Part shown: positions 3,724-28,174 of the stretch, piece after piece
How positions within the stretch are numbered: the stretch's first letter is position 1
How the letters are laid out: the number at the start of each line of letters is the position of its first letter
Source: a virus
Virus genome (UHGV): UHGV-1350822
Length of the DNA stretch: 38,999 bases
Reading direction: 5' to 3' (one strand)
The notes under the pieces: model-generated
Told to the model about the DNA's origin: nothing
Databases searched by the model: none
Seen by the model: the letters and a program-made list of their open reading frames with translations, nothing else
Made by a program: the position numbers and the translations under genes

Positions 3724-3740
3724 CGGAAAGCAACGGATGG

Positions 3741-4034
3741 TTAGCTGCTGTCTTTTTTATATAGCTCCTTGAGCGTATCAAAGACAATTTTCTTAACCAT
3801 ATCAGATTGTTGTTCTGCCATACGCTCTGCATCGTCAATGTAAACAGATGCAGAGCTTTGTTTAGCCAATGATTCTTCAATCGCTGCAATTATCTCTGAG
3901 TTCAGCGACCTGTTATTCATCTTCGCACGCTGCTTAATTTTCGCGTGGAGTTCATGCGGAAGTCTCAAGTGAAACTGCGCCTCGTCGTATTTGCTGTACA
4001 TCCTTGATGCCTCACCAGTTGGGTGGAATGGCAT
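3741..4034 (-). CDS. mnt: Mnt-like ribbon-helix-helix repressor (Arc/MetJ family)
   Basis: C-terminal region ...NDAERMAEQQSDMVKKIVFDTLKELYKK matches P22 Mnt as recalled; N-terminal RHH segment; alternative start ATG at 4001. Confidence 0.8.
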   Translation of the reverse strand: MPFHPTGEASRMYSKYDEAQFHLRLPHELHAKIKQRAKMNNRSLNSEIIAAIEESLAKQSSASVYIDDAERMAEQQSDMVKKIVFDTLKELYKKDSS

Positions 4035-4122
4035 CGTAACCTACTGGATAAATACTCAATAGTACCATTTCGGTATGCAATCACATCATGGTTGCATCAT
4101 ATCATTCGTCTGGAGCAATGAA

Positions 4123-6321
4123 ATGTCAGATATCACCGCAAATGTTGTGGTAAGCATGCCTTCGCAACTCTTCACTATGGCGCGTTCTTTTAAAGCAGTT
4201 GCCAATGGTAAAATTTATATCGGTAAAATTGACGCTGACCCCGTAAATTCAGAAAACCAGATTCAGGTTTATATAGAGAACGAAGACGGCTCTCACGTTC
4301 CTGTTTCGCAACCAATAATCATTAACGCTGCCGGATATCCGGTATATAACGGACAGATTGCCAAGTTCGTAACTGTGCAAGGCCATTCCATGGCTGTATA
4401 TGATGCGTATGGTTCGCAGCAGTTCTATTTTCCCAATGTGCTGAAGTATGATCCCGATCAGTTTAGCCAGCGAATGGAGAATGTTCCTGACATCCATACC
4501 TTAATGAGCGAGCCTGCTGGGAATCACACATTAAATGTAATTGGATACGTACCAGGAACCAACTTTGGCGGCGGGCAGTTTTACTGGGATGCCAGCATGC
4601 CTAAATCTCAGCACAACGGTATCACCATATTTAGCCCCACAGTTCCGTGGGATGGTTCGTATGCTGAGCTCGCTGCTTTCCTTGCGGGAACTGGTGAGAG
4701 TGATGGTGGTGGCTCTGGTTGCTGGATCCGTTCGAATTGTGTGCTCGATGGCATACATACAGTTTGGGCTGGACATGATATTAACGGAGTGCATGATTCA
4801 ACGGCATCGGTTAACGCTTGTATATCAAAATTTGGTGGTGTTAGAGCAATACGTTTTAGCGCCGGTGAGATAAAGTTTAATTACCAAATCAGCCAGCAAT
4901 ATCATGACTCTGCAGGTGTTATACGTAAAACAGCAATTGTAATTAATGGTAAAAATAATTTATTTGTTTACGCAGATAATGATGTAAATATAAATACAGA
5001 TGGAAATGGTGAGGCTGAGCGTGTTTGCTTTGGTTTATTCAACTGCAAAAACTTTAAATTTAATGGTATAAAGTTAAACCAGTCATGCACAAATTTTTCA
5101 ACTGGACCTTCAGATACCACGTTTACCCCTCAAGAGAATTGGTTTGGTTTCGCACTTGAGGGGAGTAGTGGATCTATTAATGATATTGACGTATTGGCTG
5201 CAAGAATCTTTGTAATGGCAGATGCTGATGGTGACGGTGCTATACCAAATGAGGATATAACTCTTAGCAATGTAAGGACTGATTTGGTAACAAATTATAC
5301 ATTTTTCACTAAAAATCTTAATGGAATTGCTAAGATGATTGACTGCCAAACGTACAGAACAGGCAGAAAATGGCATACTTTTGGTGAAGATTTTGCGTGC
5401 TCAGCAAGAACAAAATATTTAATTGCAGAAAGAAATCACTTTATAAGCCCTATAAGTATTCAGTCTAGGATTACTCCTTGGGGGGTGACTGGTGGTGCAG
5501 TTATATCGAATAACATCAAAACAGGACAAGGAATATTCGTTGAGATAGGAGGTGAATCTAACGGTGTTGCAGCGCAGAATGTTGTTATTGATAGCAATAT
5601 AAGCATTGGGGATCAGAACGAGGATGGCACATTTTCATCTCATATTCTAATTATCTGGAATGGTAGTAATGACTACTCAACATCATTCAATGGAATTAAA
5701 ATAACAAAAAATACATTTAAAGGCGGTGGTTATGCCATAAATGATTATGCTGAAACTCAGATGTCTGCATATTGTTATGGACTTGTGATTGAAAACAACC
5801 AGTTTGATAGAACTGATGCCGTAAAAGTAACAATGCCCACATGGAGAAAATCTATATACCGAGGGAATAAGTCATATTTTGTTCATGGCAATACAGGTTG
5901 TGAAATTGGTGGTTATGCTCCAATTATTTCTGACAACGACTTTGATTCTACATATCTAGTATCAACTTCGGGTGTGCGTATCGATGAACCAGTTATTGAA
6001 AATAATGAGTTTAGTAACACTTTAAACTCACCAGTAAATCAACTTATTGACTGGCCTAGTTTTGCTGGAATGATATATAGAGGAAACAGATACACGTTTT
6101 CAATTAAGAAATTTAGAGATAACGCAGATATGGTTTCCTGTGGTTGGCGTTTTGCCGATGTGTCTGCTGGAATAGACACTGCTCCTACTACAACATACCC
6201 TGGGAAAGTGCTGATAAATATAGGCGATATGATTCACAATGCAGGTACTCCTGCATCAGGAACAAACTGGGCATGGTATGGTCTTGGAAACAATACATAT
6301 GGTAATCTTAATATAGCGTAG
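4123..6321 (+). CDS. Tailspike: P22-type N-terminal head-binding domain fused to a distinct beta-helix receptor-binding/depolymerase domain
   Basis: [11 protein letters not shown]...[11 protein letters not shown]...[13 protein letters not shown]...LKYDPDQ matches the P22 gp9 N-terminus; remainder is Asn/Gly-rich repeats typical of a right-handed beta-helix; GGAG RBS before ATG 4123 (ORF track start 4075 is probably too early). Confidence 0.85.
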
Positions 6322-6331
6322 CGGAAATCAA

Positions 6332-6349
6332 GCGGGGCCATCGCCCCGC
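6332..6349. terminator. Bidirectional stem-loop terminator between convergent tailspike and acyltransferase genes
   Basis: GCGGGGC-CATC-GCCCCGC 7-bp GC stem with 4-nt loop, T-rich flanks on both strands. Confidence 0.6.
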
Positions 6350-6353
6350 AATG

Positions 6354-7508
6354 TTACTTTTTAATGAATCTCCACTCAAAATTCTTAAAACAGATACAGG
6401 AAATAACGCTACACAGAGATGCAATAAAGGCTATCAAAATTGTGTAATTCACAGTAGACATGCTCGATAGGTTATAGAAATTATTTATTGTTCTCATTAC
6501 TATAGCCATGATAGGCAAATGCAGCAAATAAAGACTATAACTTGCCTCACCTAAATAAACTAATGATTTTATTTTAAATATTTTTGGTTTAGTTATAAGT
6601 ACCATTATAAATAGTAATGAAATGCATGCAAATCTGATTCGTCCATAGCTGTCTGCGGAAGAGCAGAAGATAACAAAAATAGCTATGAAAGAAATGAATG
6701 AGAATATCCAATATTTATCATCAATGTTAACATAAGATTTATTGAATATATATGCACCTAAGGCGCCAACTATAAAATATGGCCACAAAACAAATTCTGT
6801 CATAAAGTCTCTTGCCGCAAGTAACATTACTGCGGAAATGGCAAACATACCATATCTCTTGCTTGCGATGGCAATCGATAATAGAGGGAAAATTAAATAA
6901 AACCTCCATTCATACGGTAGAGTCCATATCACCGCATTTAATCCTGATGCGTTAAAAGAGCCAATGAAGATTTCTGTGCCCAAAAATCCAAACCCAAAAA
7001 AATTTAGGAAGCTTGAAAAATCAACAAAGTTAAGCCTTGCTGAACTGCCGGATAATATAATAGCTAAAATTGCCACCAAAAGCGCAGTAAGCATATATAG
7101 AGGAACGAGTCTTTTTATCCGAGCAACATAAAATTTATTCCAGTCAAATGTATTATTTCCTTTTATTAATTTATCAAAGAACAAAAATCCTGTAATGCAA
7201 AAGAAAATCTGTACACCGAAGCTACCCATATTCCCTGTGATGGAGTATTTTGTGAAGTCTATAAATATGGGCTGAACTCCATTGGTAATAATTGTATGAG
7301 CGCCGTGATTAATAAGAACGCTGAACGCAGCTATCCCACGCAATCCGTCTATAAAGAAATACCTGTTACTTGCAAAGTTGATGTGAGAAAAATAGTTATA
7401 TCGTGTCAATAGTGTAATACATAACACAACGGCTAAAAGAGACAAAAAATATAAATAAAGACTTTGCGCCTCAAAGATCATAATGCACACCATGAGATAA
7501 AATTTCAA
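6354..7508 (-). CDS. oac: Acyltransferase-3 family integral membrane protein, likely O-antigen acetyltransferase (lysogenic conversion)
   Basis: About 10 predicted TM helices; N-terminal R...H motif (RGIAAFSVLINH) and FFCITGFLFF motif typical of acyltransferase 3; very AT-rich; sits between tailspike and int as oac does in Sf6. ORF-track start is TTG at 7508; ATG at 7493 is more likely. Confidence 0.8.
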   Translation of the reverse strand: MKFYLMVCIMIFEAQSLYLYFLSLLAVVLCITLLTRYNYFSHINFASNRYFFIDGLRGIAAFSVLINHGAHTIITNGVQPIFIDFTKYSITGNMGSFGVQIFFCITGFLFFDKLIKGNNTFDWNKFYVARIKRLVPLYMLTALLVAILAIILSGSSARLNFVDFSSFLNFFGFGFLGTEIFIGSFNASGLNAVIWTLPYEWRFYLIFPLLSIAIASKRYGMFAISAVMLLAARDFMTEFVLWPYFIVGALGAYIFNKSYVNIDDKYWIFSFISFIAIFVIFCSSADSYGRIRFACISLLFIMVLITKPKIFKIKSLVYLGEASYSLYLLHLPIMAIVMRTINNFYNLSSMSTVNYTILIAFIASLCSVISCICFKNFEWRFIKK

Positions 7509-7726
7509 AGGATTATAGCAGGGCTACCAGCGCAGATCACCAACTCACTGCTCATGATGAGCATTTCTATGATTATAAAATAACTGCAAAAAGTATTACG
7601 TCTAACAGTGAAGCAGATCACAAAGACGATTTATGAACGTTCTGGTGAATTTGATGATTGCCAGGTAATGTGAGGCATGAACGAGGCACACAAAGCTTTG
7701 TACTATCCGATAGTGGTTAAGATCGA

Positions 7727-8884
7727 TCACTCCACCTTTTCATCAATCCAGTCAGCCCACCACTGCATCATTTCTCTGCGCTTATCTAGATACTGAGCAT
7801 GGTTGTAAATCCCGCGCACAGATCCGCCGTTGGCATGTGCAAGTTGCACTTCAATAGCGTCAGCAGGCCATTCGTGCTCGTTCATAATCGTGCTGAATTC
7901 ATGCCTGAATCCGTGACCGCTTTCCAGACCCTCATAGCCGATTTGTTTGATCACAAGCAATACCGCGTTCTCGCAGATTGGCTTTTTCTTATCGTTGCGC
8001 CCGGCAAAAACAAACTCTGATACTGGTTTAGTGATTGAGCTTAGCGTAGTGAGAAGTTCAACCACCTGGTCTGACATCGGGACAACATGAATTTTGCGTC
8101 CCTTCATCACACTGGCGTCGATGGTGATAATCCTGTTTTCAAAATCGACGTTCTTCCATTGCATGGAACGAAGCTCTTTCGTTCTTAGGGCTGTGTAGCG
8201 TAAAACTTTGGTCGCAATGAGCGATACGATACTTCCTGAAAATGTTGCAAGTGCTTTGTTGAATGCCGGGATCTGGTCGGCAGGTAAAAACGGGAAGTTC
8301 TTCTTGCGGTATCCCTTCATGGCGTCAGCAAGGTCAGGTGCCGGGTTATATTTAGCCCTACCAGTGACAATAGCGTAACGAAAAACCTCGCCGCATCTTC
8401 TGCGGGCTTTGTTGGCTCGCTCCATTGCACCGCGATCTTCAAATCTGCGGATTACTTCCAGCAGTTGCATCGGCTCAATATCCTGAATCTCAAGACCGCC
8501 GATGATGGGTAAAATGTCGTCATCAAACATTTTGGCAAGTTCAGTTGCATAGCCTACTGACCAGACTTGCTTCTTGTGCTCGTACCATTCCTTGTAAATC
8601 GCACTAAATGAATTGTTGCTAGACGAAGACTTTTTCGCCTTTACCGGATCGATGCCAACCGAGATGTCTTTCCTCGCAGTCCATGCCTTATCCCTTGCTT
8701 CCTGCAAAGTCATAAGCGGATATTTTCCGACAGTCAGGATTTTCTCCTTACCGTCAATCTTGTAGCGAAGCTGCCATACCTTTTTCCCTGATACAGGGAC
8801 ATAAAGGTACAGGCCATTACCATCGAGTAGGCGGTATGGTTTTTCTTTCGGCTTTGCTGCTTCAATCTGCTTAACGGTGAGCAT
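7727..8884 (-). CDS. int: Tyrosine integrase, P4/IntS-type (DUF4102 arm-binding N-domain plus catalytic domain)
   Basis: MLTVKQIEAAKPKEKPYRLLDGNGLYLYV N-domain; catalytic residues in HGFRHEF...LAH...Y; ORF track extends to GTG 8920 but ATG 8884 matches the usual IntS-type N-terminus. Confidence 0.9.
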   Translation of the reverse strand: MLTVKQIEAAKPKEKPYRLLDGNGLYLYVPVSGKKVWQLRYKIDGKEKILTVGKYPLMTLQEARDKAWTARKDISVGIDPVKAKKSSSSNNSFSAIYKEWYEHKKQVWSVGYATELAKMFDDDILPIIGGLEIQDIEPMQLLEVIRRFEDRGAMERANKARRRCGEVFRYAIVTGRAKYNPAPDLADAMKGYRKKNFPFLPADQIPAFNKALATFSGSIVSLIATKVLRYTALRTKELRSMQWKNVDFENRIITIDASVMKGRKIHVVPMSDQVVELLTTLSSITKPVSEFVFAGRNDKKKPICENAVLLVIKQIGYEGLESGHGFRHEFSTIMNEHEWPADAIEVQLAHANGGSVRGIYNHAQYLDKRREMMQWWADWIDEKVE

Positions 8885-9045
8885 GGGTAAAAATCCGGTG
8901 GGTAAAATTATTTTATCCACTTTTTACCCGTCATGGAGTGCGGCTGTCAACGATCTGACGCGAACCATGACGAACCGTGAATATACGTAAGGCTTGATAT
9001 TCAGGGGATTTTGCGGACTGGTACGGATGGGAGCGAACTGATAAA

Positions 9046-9084
9046 TGGTGTCCCCTGCAGACATCTACTTGACGAGGCAGGGGA
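9046..9084 (-). other. Candidate attP core: 15 nt identical to the 3' end of tRNA-Arg (argW) including CCA, inside an 8-bp inverted repeat
   Basis: 9046-9060 TGGTGTCCCCTGCAG is the reverse complement of CTGCAGGGGACACCA (argW 3' end as I recall it); inverted repeat TCCCCTGC(9051-58)/GCAGGGGA(9077-84); about 161 nt upstream of int ATG. Confidence 0.5.
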
Positions 9085-9133
9085 TTGATTTGAATGGTGT
9101 TTTTTAGATGTGAGAAATATTTTACCCGCTATT

Positions 9134-9334
9134 TTACCCATTGGCGCGGCTTAAGAGCTTATTTTTGAATTCACAATGGTCACGATATAACCATCTTGCT
9201 CGCCCGTGGATAACTTTGGCTTTTGGCAGGTCGCCGGACTTAATCCGGTCGTAGATGAAGGTTTTACCGAAGCCAGTATCAGCCATGATGAATTTCAAAT
9301 CAACCAGTGAATCAGGTTGTAGTTCGTGTTGCAT
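9134..9334 (-). CDS. xis: Excisionase / AlpA-family small DNA-binding protein (TorI-like)
   Basis: 66-aa protein with winged-helix AlpA/Xis character; immediately upstream of int and attP; GGAG RBS. Confidence 0.75.
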   Translation of the reverse strand: MQHELQPDSLVDLKFIMADTGFGKTFIYDRIKSGDLPKAKVIHGRARWLYRDHCEFKNKLLSRANG

Positions 9335-9365
9335 GAGTGCTATCTCCGAATAGGGAATCGAACCT

Positions 9366-9389
9366 GCAAATCAGGCAATAAAAAACCGC
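9366..9389 (-). terminator. Rho-independent terminator (leftward transcript) upstream of xis
   Basis: Stem CCGCC/GGCGG with loop on the minus strand, followed by a TTTTTTATT run. Confidence 0.6.
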
Positions 9390-9442
9390 CATCAGGCGGC
9401 TTGGTGTTCTTTCAGTTCTTCAATTCGAATGTTGGTTACGTC

Positions 9443-9754
9443 TTATTCGATGCGCACTCCTGGTATTTCTCCTTTTGATATTGCTAAGTCATAAATTTGC
9501 GCGGCACTATATCCATCCCGCATCCATGAATCTAAGGCGCGAACAGCCTCGCTACGCTTTTTATCTTCTCTCTCATTTTTGATATCAACGAGGACATCAA
9601 CGCAATTAAGGCAAATGTGGATTTTGTCCTTACATTCGATCATGGCGGCTTTACCATGATTTCCGCCACACAGTGAGCATAAATCTTCAGGGTCTGTCTG
9701 GTATTTCTGTAACGTTAGATGGTTGAATGTTGAACAGGCCATAATCATCTCCAT
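9443..9754 (-). CDS. Hypothetical protein with Cys-x2-C...C-x2-C zinc-ribbon-like motif
   Basis: 103-aa ORF in the leftward operon; CSLCGG...CLNC motif. Confidence 0.5.
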   Translation of the reverse strand: MEMIMACSTFNHLTLQKYQTDPEDLCSLCGGNHGKAAMIECKDKIHICLNCVDVLVDIKNEREDKKRSEAVRALDSWMRDGYSAAQIYDLAISKGEIPGVRIE

Positions 9755-9813
9755 AAAACAAAACTCGCCGTAGCGAGTTCAGATAAAAGAAATCCCCGCG
9801 AGTGCGAGGATTG

Positions 9814-10098
9814 TTATTCATTGCTGATATTCACCTTTATCGCGAACACCTTTACCGGTTTATCACCGAAGTGCGGATGTGTGATTGTTTTGATTTCATA
9901 TCCACCATACGGAACATCAATTCTGCGACTGGAATCGTCGCGCTTCGGATATCCCTTTGTGATAATCAGGCGGTCATACTTCCGGAACATAATTCGCTTT
10001 TTCCAGTAATCATTACACAGGCGATACTCTTCCGTTTTCTCGTATGACTTCATCTGGTCGAAATATTCACCTTTAACGGCAAGTTGCAGGTTAGCCAC
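9814..10098 (-). CDS. Hypothetical early-left (Ea-region) protein
   Basis: AGGAGG RBS then GTG at 10098; the ORF-track ATG at 10227 lies inside the upstream gene, so the shorter form is more likely. Confidence 0.5.
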   Translation of the reverse strand: MANLQLAVKGEYFDQMKSYEKTEEYRLCNDYWKKRIMFRKYDRLIITKGYPKRDDSSRRIDVPYGGYEIKTITHPHFGDKPVKVFAIKVNISNE

Positions 10099-10798
10099 GG
10101 TTAACCTCCTGCTTAGGTGCTGCTGGCATTTCACGCCAGTGCGTAACTGAGTGCGGATCCGGATATTCGGTGCCATCATCCCAGCGATTACCATTCCACA
10201 TTGCAGACCACATCTCACCGTCTTCATACATGACCATTACCGGAATTAACTTATCCGGCATTCGCTCACTACAGCTTATCCAACCATCCGGAGTTACCGG
10301 AGAGTTGCCATTCACAAGGTCAGCTCGAACATATAGCGTGTCATCATGGTGCTGATTGTGGCTGCACCACGTTAATTCGCTTAACTCGCCATCTTCTGGC
10401 CATACTCCAGCCGTTTGCAGCCAGATATGGGCTGGCGCATCTTGGCAAGGTGTATTAACTGGCAACTTGCAAGTTTGGCTTACAGGTTCGGCTTCCAGTT
10501 CTGCTATGCGCTTTTTTGCTGTTTCCAGCTCGCCCAGCAGCGCCAAGACGGTAGCCGGATTGGCTGCGGCGATGAATTCAGCGTTGGCCTGCTGTTCCAT
10601 TTGGAAATCTTCATCGAAACCGCTTTCTGGATGCGCTCCTTCAATTCTGCAAATAGGAATATATCCAGCAACTTCACGATGAATTAGTGCATCATCACCA
10701 TCAAATCGGCCCTTTCCATATTCGAGCGACCACACACCACACGTTGCTTTCTCTGCCTTTTCACGCAGTGCCTGATAGTCAATTTTCATTCTCGCCAT
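10091..10798 (-). CDS. Ead/Ea22-like protein with C-terminal DUF551-like domain
   Basis: 235-aa ORF; N-terminal coiled-coil and Trp-rich C-terminal region typical of Ea22/DUF551 prophage proteins (recalled family, not searched). Confidence 0.55.
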   Translation of the reverse strand: MARMKIDYQALREKAEKATCGVWSLEYGKGRFDGDDALIHREVAGYIPICRIEGAHPESGFDEDFQMEQQANAEFIAAANPATVLALLGELETAKKRIAELEAEPVSQTCKLPVNTPCQDAPAHIWLQTAGVWPEDGELSELTWCSHNQHHDDTLYVRADLVNGNSPVTPDGWISCSERMPDKLIPVMVMYEDGEMWSAMWNGNRWDDGTEYPDPHSVTHWREMPAAPKQEVNRG

Positions 10799-17953: not shown

Positions 17954-18115
17954 ATGACAAAACGTCGTAAGAAATACCAGGAAAAAGAAGAGATTCGACA
18001 CCCTGATTCACCTGAGGGATTAGTGGTAGCCGCAGCAAATAACAGGGCGTTCGCAGAGCGCCTTGTTGGTGTTTACAGACTAGCAAAAGCAGGAGTGAAA
18101 CATGGGCGTCGTTAA
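17954..18115 (+). CDS. Small basic hypothetical protein (53 aa)
   Basis: AGGAG RBS 6 nt before ATG 17954; not in the ORF track; lies between cII and the replication gene. Confidence 0.35.
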   Translation: MTKRRKKYQEKEEIRHPDSPEGLVVAAANNRAFAERLVGVYRLAKAGVKHGRR

Positions 18116-25172: not shown

Positions 25173-25272
25173 NNNNNNNNNNNNNNNNNNNNNNNNNNNN
25201 NNNNNNNNNNNNNNNNNNNNNNNNNNNNNNNNNNNNNNNNNNNNNNNNNNNNNNNNNNNNNNNNNNNNNNNN
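25173..25272. other. Assembly gap (100 Ns) flanked by 55-bp duplicated sequence
   Basis: 25118-25172 is identical to 25273-25327; typical scaffold join across a k=55 overlap. Confidence 0.95.
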
Positions 25273-28074: not shown

Positions 28075-28174
28075 NNNNNNNNNNNNNNNNNNNNNNNNNN
28101 NNNNNNNNNNNNNNNNNNNNNNNNNNNNNNNNNNNNNNNNNNNNNNNNNNNNNNNNNNNNNNNNNNNNNNNNNN
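28075..28174. other. Assembly gap (100 Ns) flanked by 55-bp duplicated sequence
   Basis: 28020-28074 is identical to 28175-28229. Confidence 0.95.

Follow-up and report, generated by a model that had tools for sequence, protein, structure and literature searches.

An argW-type attP core between int and xis in a P22-like podovirus genome

Nucleotides 9045–9060 of the DNA analyzed here, a 38,999-nt stretch of UHGV virus genome UHGV-1350822 that is referred to throughout as the window, most probably represent the attP crossover core of an Sf6/HK620-like, P22-type podovirus, at which an IntS-type integrase would recombine the phage DNA with the 3′ end of the host tRNA gene argW; judging by the comparisons presented below, we put the probability of this reading at about 0.97. 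All those traits of the argW-specific IntS/TorI module of KplE1, HK620, Sf6, CUS-3 and Kapi1 that can be assessed from sequence are found in the window, and no observation speaks against this reading. The feature as such is already known, being the same well-studied site as in Sf6, HK620, Kapi1 and KplE1, and the phage is at most a new carrier of it, with cargo resembling that of an Escherichia coli W prophage.

Genomic context of the attachment site

The window belongs to the Sf6/HK620 group of P22-like podoviruses (Lederbergvirus-type), and a megablast search with positions 6300–10100 retrieved HF4s, Sf6, IME10, N7 and HK620 at 96–97% identity across int–xis. The pertinent genes encode a tailspike (748 aa; 4075–6321, + strand), an Acyl_transf_3 O-antigen acetylase-like acyltransferase (oac, 384 aa; 6354–7508, − strand), the integrase (int, 385 aa; 7727–8884, − strand, with the ATG at 8884) and Xis (9134–9334, − strand), and the 249-nt gap between int and xis holds the attP core. 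No tRNA gene was detected in the window by ARAGORN, which identifies the argW-like 15-mer discussed below as an att core rather than a piece of a phage tRNA. Two runs of N, of exactly 100 nt each (25173–25272 and 28075–28174), show that the window is a scaffolded assembly and an unfinished genome; given these gaps, it is not certain that the window as it stands corresponds to a viable phage.

The crossover core is spanned by a 46-aa open reading frame (9001–9141, − strand) homologous to hkaB of HK620 and gene 17 of Sf6, which integration would cut in two. Conservation of this frame among the relatives tracks the binding-site blocks and not the codons; the product has no Pfam match, and the frame is probably not a gene.

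Identity of the core with the 3′ end of argW

The 15-mer TGGTGTCCCCTGCAG occurs once in the window, at 9046–9060 on the + strand, where 0.05 matches would be expected by chance even with two mismatches allowed. A preliminary description of this DNA took it for the reverse complement of the end of argW, and database comparison with annotated tRNA-Arg genes bears this out: read on the opposite strand, the 15-mer reproduces without mismatch the terminal 15 nt of E. coli tRNA-Arg argW, CCA included. The annotated tRNA-Arg of phage VT2phi_272 and of E. coli K-12 NCM3722 ends in ...CCTGCAGGGGACACCA (over a longer 3′ stretch, ...GCAGGTTCGATTCCTGCAGGGGACACCA), and this end aligns base for base with 9046–9060, the annotated tRNA terminus falling on 9046. 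With one additional nucleotide, the common core ATGGTGTCCCCTGCAG extends over 9045–9060 and reads CTGCAGGGGACACCAT on the − strand, which corresponds to the 3′ end of argW with 1 nt added.

The same bases have been delimited in several characterized elements. KplE1 is flanked by the duplicated 16-nt core CTGCAGGGGACACCAT (PMC2951348), of which window 9045–9060 is the exact reverse complement, and the core CTGCAGGGGACACCA(T) that is common to attP and attB of argW-specific IntS/TorI modules is present without change at 9045–9060. Deposited "attP core" features in HK620 (1368–1383) and Sf6 (18099–18114), both with the sequence ATGGTGTCCCCTGCAG, align to window 9045–9060, and in CUS-3 an "attL core" has been deposited at the equivalent place.

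With regard to the flanking genes, 161 nt lie between the int ATG (8884, − strand) and the 15-mer, just as the preliminary description had it, and xis is located on the opposite side of the core; the tRNA and intS lie on one strand, so that the proposed correspondence with the orientation of argW–intS in K-12 holds as well. The placement of the attP core between int and xis is backed by junction mapping, deposited annotations and the literature; the same evidence bears out that integration, as in KplE1/CPS-53, leaves int at one end of the prophage and xis at the other (PMC2951348, PMC3509656, PMC8787464).

Prophage junctions and the empty attachment site in Escherichia coli

When positions 8650–9450 of the window were compared as a query with 5426 complete E. 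coli genomes, 3024 of these showed matches, which fall into two complementary types. The attL-type matches cover positions 1–411 of the query and stop at 9060, beneath the annotated tRNA-Arg beside intS, whereas the attR-type matches start at query position 396, which is 9045, beside torI; the overlap between the two types is exactly the 16-mer 9045–9060. Thus, examination of lysogen attL/attR junctions, which had been suggested as a check on the site, places the breaks at 9045–9060 in complete E. coli genomes. A chance match is excluded, since the 15-mer is unique in the window and independent prophages in their thousands have their junctions precisely at these bases. A synthetic empty attB of 606 nt, composed of the bacterial flank of attR (dsdC side), one copy of the core and the bacterial flank of attL (argW–yfdC), was found at 100% identity and is essentially intact in 911 genomes. 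Depending on the host flank, the duplicated core appears as 15, 16 or 17 nt, and it comprises 16 nt (9045–9060) in K-12-type strains.

In seventeen of the complete E. coli genomes, attP is uninterrupted. We considered these as possible cases of insertion at an alternative site and rejected this interpretation, since the example that was examined (NZ_CM142764.1, 4485550–4526350) is a head-to-tail tandem or concatemer copy, with the same packaging/terminase genes at both ends of a 40-kb stretch. This P22-like prophage reflects either genuine tandem lysogeny or replicating phage DNA caught in the assembly.

The closest counterpart of the integrase-proximal part of the window is a prophage of E. 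coli W. A 99.3%-identical copy of window 3732–9060 is present in E. coli W and in four other genomes, in all of which the tailspike, acyltransferase and intS genes run contiguously into tRNA-Arg without a break. The gene order in the E. coli W prophage is yfdC, tRNA-Arg, intS, acyltransferase and tailspike, with torI at the other end. At the attR of E. coli W (40950–40990 of its locus) the base ahead of TGGTG is C and not A, which reduces the duplicated core there to the 15-mer 9046–9060 instead of 16 nt. The outer flank of this attR is occupied by an oligosaccharide MFS transporter in place of dsdC. The relationship between this prophage and the window is that of a mosaic, with 99.3% identity in the tailspike–acyltransferase–int segment and patchy 80–98% identity with gaps elsewhere, and this mosaicism is modular exchange of the kind typical of P22-like phages.

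These comparisons also bear on the alternative that the resemblance to argW is fortuitous or vestigial, with the true attP located elsewhere, for example at 7509–7726 between oac and int, in keeping with the attP–int–xis order of lambda and P22. This alternative, which we consider exceedingly improbable, was raised only because attP adjoins int in P22 and lambda, and we found nothing to support it. The 7509–7726 interval, where a prophage junction had been named in advance as a finding that would speak against the argW site, contains none and is unbroken in the five genomes that share the 99.3%-identical segment; every junction maps to 9045–9060, and the one examined among the few genomes with an unbroken attP holds a head-to-tail tandem copy, not an alternative insertion site.

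Integrase, Xis and the predicted accessory sites of attP

The integrase contains the Pfam domains Arm-DNA-bind_3, Phage_int_M and Phage_integrase, the architecture of an IntS-type heterobivalent tyrosine integrase. The arm-binding domain begins at residue 2, and the 385-aa product is colinear with HK620 Int, to which it is 98% identical; in comparison with IntS of E. coli W, 384 of the 385 residues are the same. Xis corresponds to TorI, HkaC and Sf6 gp18. Although it has no Pfam match, a PDB sequence search showed that it is identical in 66 of 66 residues to the Tor inhibition protein (PDB 1Z4H), and its counterpart in E. coli prophages is annotated as torI. A search of viral contigs with Xis yielded 80 loci, all with identical TorI and hence no added diversity; the divergent relatives discussed below were taken from a tblastn search of a phage collection. 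The six divergent modules extend to 39% identity in Xis (phiEt88), and some of them have arm repeats of a different type.

The extent of the functional attP can be delimited by the primers attL-SpeI and attR-IHF2 (PMC3509656, PMC2951348), which served for in vitro recombination of KplE1 and for attP quantification. Both match the window exactly, at 8861–8884 and 9138–9157, respectively, so that the functional attP, consisting of the P′ arm, the core and the P arm, should occupy approximately 8861–9157. In this 297-nt interval, there are 9–11 differences from Sf6 and HK620, none of them inside a recognized motif; the att sites of KplE1, HK620 and Sf6 agree fully with the window in the core, in the TorI pentamers, in the arm repeats and in both arms of the inverted repeat.

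Repeat families and motif scanning delineate the predicted arm-type Int sites. In the P′ arm, GGGTAAAA is found at 8885–8892 and 8900–8907 and its inverted form TTTTACCC at 8922–8929, and these repeats are invariant in relatives at approximately 75% identity; the TAAA core of the P′ sites has been described previously (PMC2951348). In the P arm, TTTTACCC occurs at 9120–9127 and 9132–9139 and is likewise conserved in relatives. The putative sites of TorI, the RDF, lie on the − strand within 8951–9038, in a block of three with a 10-bp period (CGATC 8951, CGAAC 8961 and CGAAC 8971) and a block of two (CGGAC 9014 and CGAAC 9034). The GTTCG/GATCG/GTCCG pentamers, their arrangement in 3 + 2 blocks and their spacing agree with those reported for KplE1 (PMC2951348), and they are kept in the relatives. 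The sole sigma-70-like match within 8700–9500 runs from 8934 to 8907 on the − strand and, by its position only, is a candidate for P_intS, an autoregulated promoter that overlaps the P′1 arm site and attL and adjoins the TorI sites I4 and I5 (PMC2951348).

The inverted repeat and the predicted region of strand exchange

The core overlaps a perfect 8-bp inverted repeat, TCCCCTGC at 9051–9058 and GCAGGGGA at 9077–9084, with the arms 18 nt apart. A count of perfect 8-bp inverted repeats with loops of 3–30 nt, from which the two 100-N runs were excluded because they inflate naive counts, gave 34 seed hits in the window versus 15.5 ± 4.2 in shuffled sequences, with four distinct repeats inside attP; when the repeat region was folded as single-stranded DNA, the z-score was −2.4, and 3 of the 200 shuffles folded equally well. 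The distal arm is embedded in the block GCAGGGG-TTGA (9077–9088), which is invariant in Erwinia phage Midgardsormr38 and Klebsiella phage Chronis at approximately 75% DNA identity, while the 11 nt that separate it from the core (9066–9076) are free to vary in these two phages. In five of the six divergent modules the arrangement CCCCTGC-N18-GCAGGGG is kept, and in Emek it takes the form of CCCTGC with N24.

The preliminary description had interpreted this repeat as suited to core-type binding by Int. The repeat itself is real and conserved, but with 18 nt between the arms and a centre outside the segment of identity between attP and attB it does not have the layout of a canonical C-O-C′ pair. 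In lambda-type cores, tyrosine recombinases cleave 6–8 bp apart, between adjacent half-sites. A C-O-C′ arrangement of this kind, with half-sites flanking an overlap of 6–8 bp that is identical in attP and attB, is lacking in the 8-bp repeat and is present in a different, 7-bp-spaced dyad, in which the candidate half-sites TGGTGTC (9046–9052) and GACATCT (9060–9066) flank the putative overlap CCCTGCA (9053–9059). This is the sole dyad around the core with at least 5/7 matches and a 6–9 bp spacer (its own score is 5/7). The half-site pattern rGrTGTm/GACAyy is kept in the six divergent modules, and ACATC (9061–9065), which is not part of the identity with attB, is nonetheless invariant. From the dyad symmetry and conservation, we infer that strand exchange would occur within the 7-bp overlap 9053–9059. 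Core-type and IHF sites have reportedly been mapped by Panis and colleagues (JBC, 2007; Virology, 2010).

What, then, is the function of the repeat? That its two arms are a pair of core-type Int sites that bound the region of strand exchange is quite unlikely in our view. The perfection of the repeat, its better-than-shuffled folding (z = −2.4), the conservation of the distal arm in all six divergent modules and the constant 18-nt spacing in five of these are compatible with such a role, but an 18-nt separation of the arms is at odds with cleavage 6–8 bp apart, and the centre of the repeat (approximately 9064–9071) is outside 9045–9060, in a region where argW departs from the window at 8 of the 12 positions 9061–9072, so that exchange at this centre would yield a mismatched heteroduplex; besides, a conserved 7-bp-spaced dyad is available inside the identity segment. 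We regard with more favour, while still rating it somewhat below an even chance, the possibility that the distal arm, at 9077–9090, is an accessory site, namely the functional IHF site of KplE1 attR or an additional Int core-type-like site, in which case its complementarity to the core would be either a by-product or of service to the geometry of the intasome. On the − strand, AATCAATCCCCTG at 9078–9090 differs from the IHF consensus WATCAANNNNTTR by one mismatch, most of the relatives have a WATCAA-like hexamer ahead of CCCCTGC, and an A6 tract is present at 9100–9105; an A tract also accompanies strong IHF sites, such as lambda H′. The name of the primer attR-IHF2 implies that IHF sites were predicted in the P arm, and the abstract of the 2010 Virology article by Panis and colleagues is said to mention a single functional IHF site in KplE1, on attR. 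Against the assignment to IHF, a consensus scan with one mismatch allowed gave 43 matches in the window versus 45.9 expected by chance, and the CCCC of the distal arm is invariant, yet IHF leaves the NNNN positions unspecified.

A direct repeat, CAGGGGATT, has its only two occurrences in the window at 9002–9010 and 9078–9086. The copies flank the core, 43 nt to its left and 18 nt to its right, respectively; the right copy is invariant in the relatives and the left copy is partly conserved.

A model of integration and comparison with known modules

The model that follows is drawn from sequence as far as the identity to characterized systems and the positions of attL, attR and attB are concerned, whereas the protein–DNA interactions and the activity are taken from the literature. 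The IntS-type integrase is predicted to recombine the phage core with the identical 15–16 nt at the 3′ end of argW; the phage core would take the place of the tRNA 3′ end, leaving argW intact. With attP located between int and xis, integration would split the two genes, such that int and the P′ arm become part of attL beside argW, with int expressed from its own promoter overlapping attL, and xis (torI) and the P arm become part of attR at the far end of the prophage. By analogy with published work, the N-terminal domain of Int would bind the GGGTAAA arm repeats and its C-terminal domains the core, whereas TorI, acting on five CGAAC-type sites of the P′ arm, would direct excision; IHF would assist.

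KplE1 (CPS-53) of E. coli K-12, which belongs to the few fully characterized heterobivalent integrase systems, shares with the window the 16-nt core, the five TorI motifs, the arm repeats and a 100% identical TorI, and in both cases int adjoins argW and torI is at the far end. On the attL side, 6 of 200 nt are different in KplE1, and none of these lies within a motif. The main distinction is that KplE1 is a 10-kb defective remnant known as attL and attR only, in contrast to the intact attP in a full-length P22-like genome seen here. Recombination activity has been documented for KplE1 and HK620 substrates and for Kapi1.

HK620 (AF335538) and Sf6 (AF547987) have the same core, the same int–attP–xis order and the same small frame (hkaB/gp17) across the core, with 11 of 297 and 9 of 297 nt different in attP, respectively. 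Between the core and the distal arm of the repeat, a few substitutions (9073, 9075, 9076, 9091) set them apart from the window, and the 384-aa acyltransferase and 748-aa tailspike of the window match the E. coli W prophage instead. For Kapi1, the core has been reported as the 17-bp AATGGTGTCCCCTGCAG, and the window likewise has AA before TGG (9044–9060). In that phage, too, attP is located between int and xis, as in Sf6, HK620 and KplE1, and deletion of attB reduced integration at the site to 0 of 24 colonies compared with 19 of 20 (PMC8787464).

Lambda and P22 resemble the argW modules in the common core of approximately 15 bp, the arm-type and core-type binding by Int, the use of an RDF, the IHF sites and an attP of about 250–300 bp (PMC2951348), and differ from them in the number, spacing and orientation of the sites. 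The order in lambda and P22 is attP–int–xis, which keeps both genes at one prophage end and co-transcribed, whereas here attP splits int from xis. In the argW modules int has its own autoregulated promoter at attL, and transcription of int and xis is uncoupled in the prophage (PMC2951348).

In the more distant relatives Chronis and phiEt88, the gaps between xis and int retain TGCAGGGGACA but are missing the bases of the CCA end (…GACACttg and …GACAatt, respectively). In these phages, one of two things must hold: the segment shared with the host tRNA does not reach its 3′ end, or the hosts have argW 3′ ends unlike that of E. coli.

With the integration site and the prophage ends fixed in this manner, any lysogen of the phage would be expected to carry it at argW, where yfdC and the dsdC-side flank enclose the prophage and intS and torI mark its left and right ends, respectively. 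The phage is thus placed in a biochemically dissected recombination module, and no new biology is implied. The practical use lies in annotation and in the prediction of competition, or of tandem lysogeny, with prophages already at argW, which are numerous (matches in 3024 of 5426 genomes). In addition, the case provides a positive control, in that tRNA-derived att cores can be called by a reader from sequence alone.

A T-arm-like motif upstream of xis

In the leader of xis, 20–35 nt upstream of the ATG and in the orientation of the core, the window contains a second stretch of resemblance to argW. The 16-mer GGAATCGAACCTGCAA (9354–9369), unique in the window, consists of the 16 nt of the argW T arm that abut the core in the tRNA, its last base being the first base of the core, and includes the attB-side half-site TTCGATTCC. 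HK620, Sf6 and prophages of E. coli also carry the 16-mer, and in HK620 this region is annotated with a CII site and the CII-dependent pI promoter. Shortened to 13 nt (AGGTTCGATTCCC), the motif recurs at −30 of xis in the Erwinia phage phiEt88 and, as a tandem duplicate, in Midgardsormr38; it is absent in Chronis, EhrS_49 and Emek. An Rfam search of 8700–9600 returned sub-threshold sRNA hits only (E ≥ 0.36), and the xis leaders of three lineages folded to a consensus of −3.2 kcal/mol, which lends no support to a conserved RNA structure. We also considered the motif as an operator for TorI; this idea is weakened by phiEt88, which keeps the motif though its P′ arm repeats differ in type.

Neither the CCCCTGC distal arm nor the T-arm-like motif was found discussed in the accessible literature. 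It is conceivable, although we think it rather unlikely, that both are undescribed functional sites and that AGGTTCGATTCCC is an extra Int core-type (B-like) site which couples occupancy by Int to xis expression or to synapsis. A strong intrinsic-terminator-like hairpin of 8 pairs followed by a T run (9383–9402, − strand) closely precedes the xis leader and stands between xis and the upstream early-left genes.
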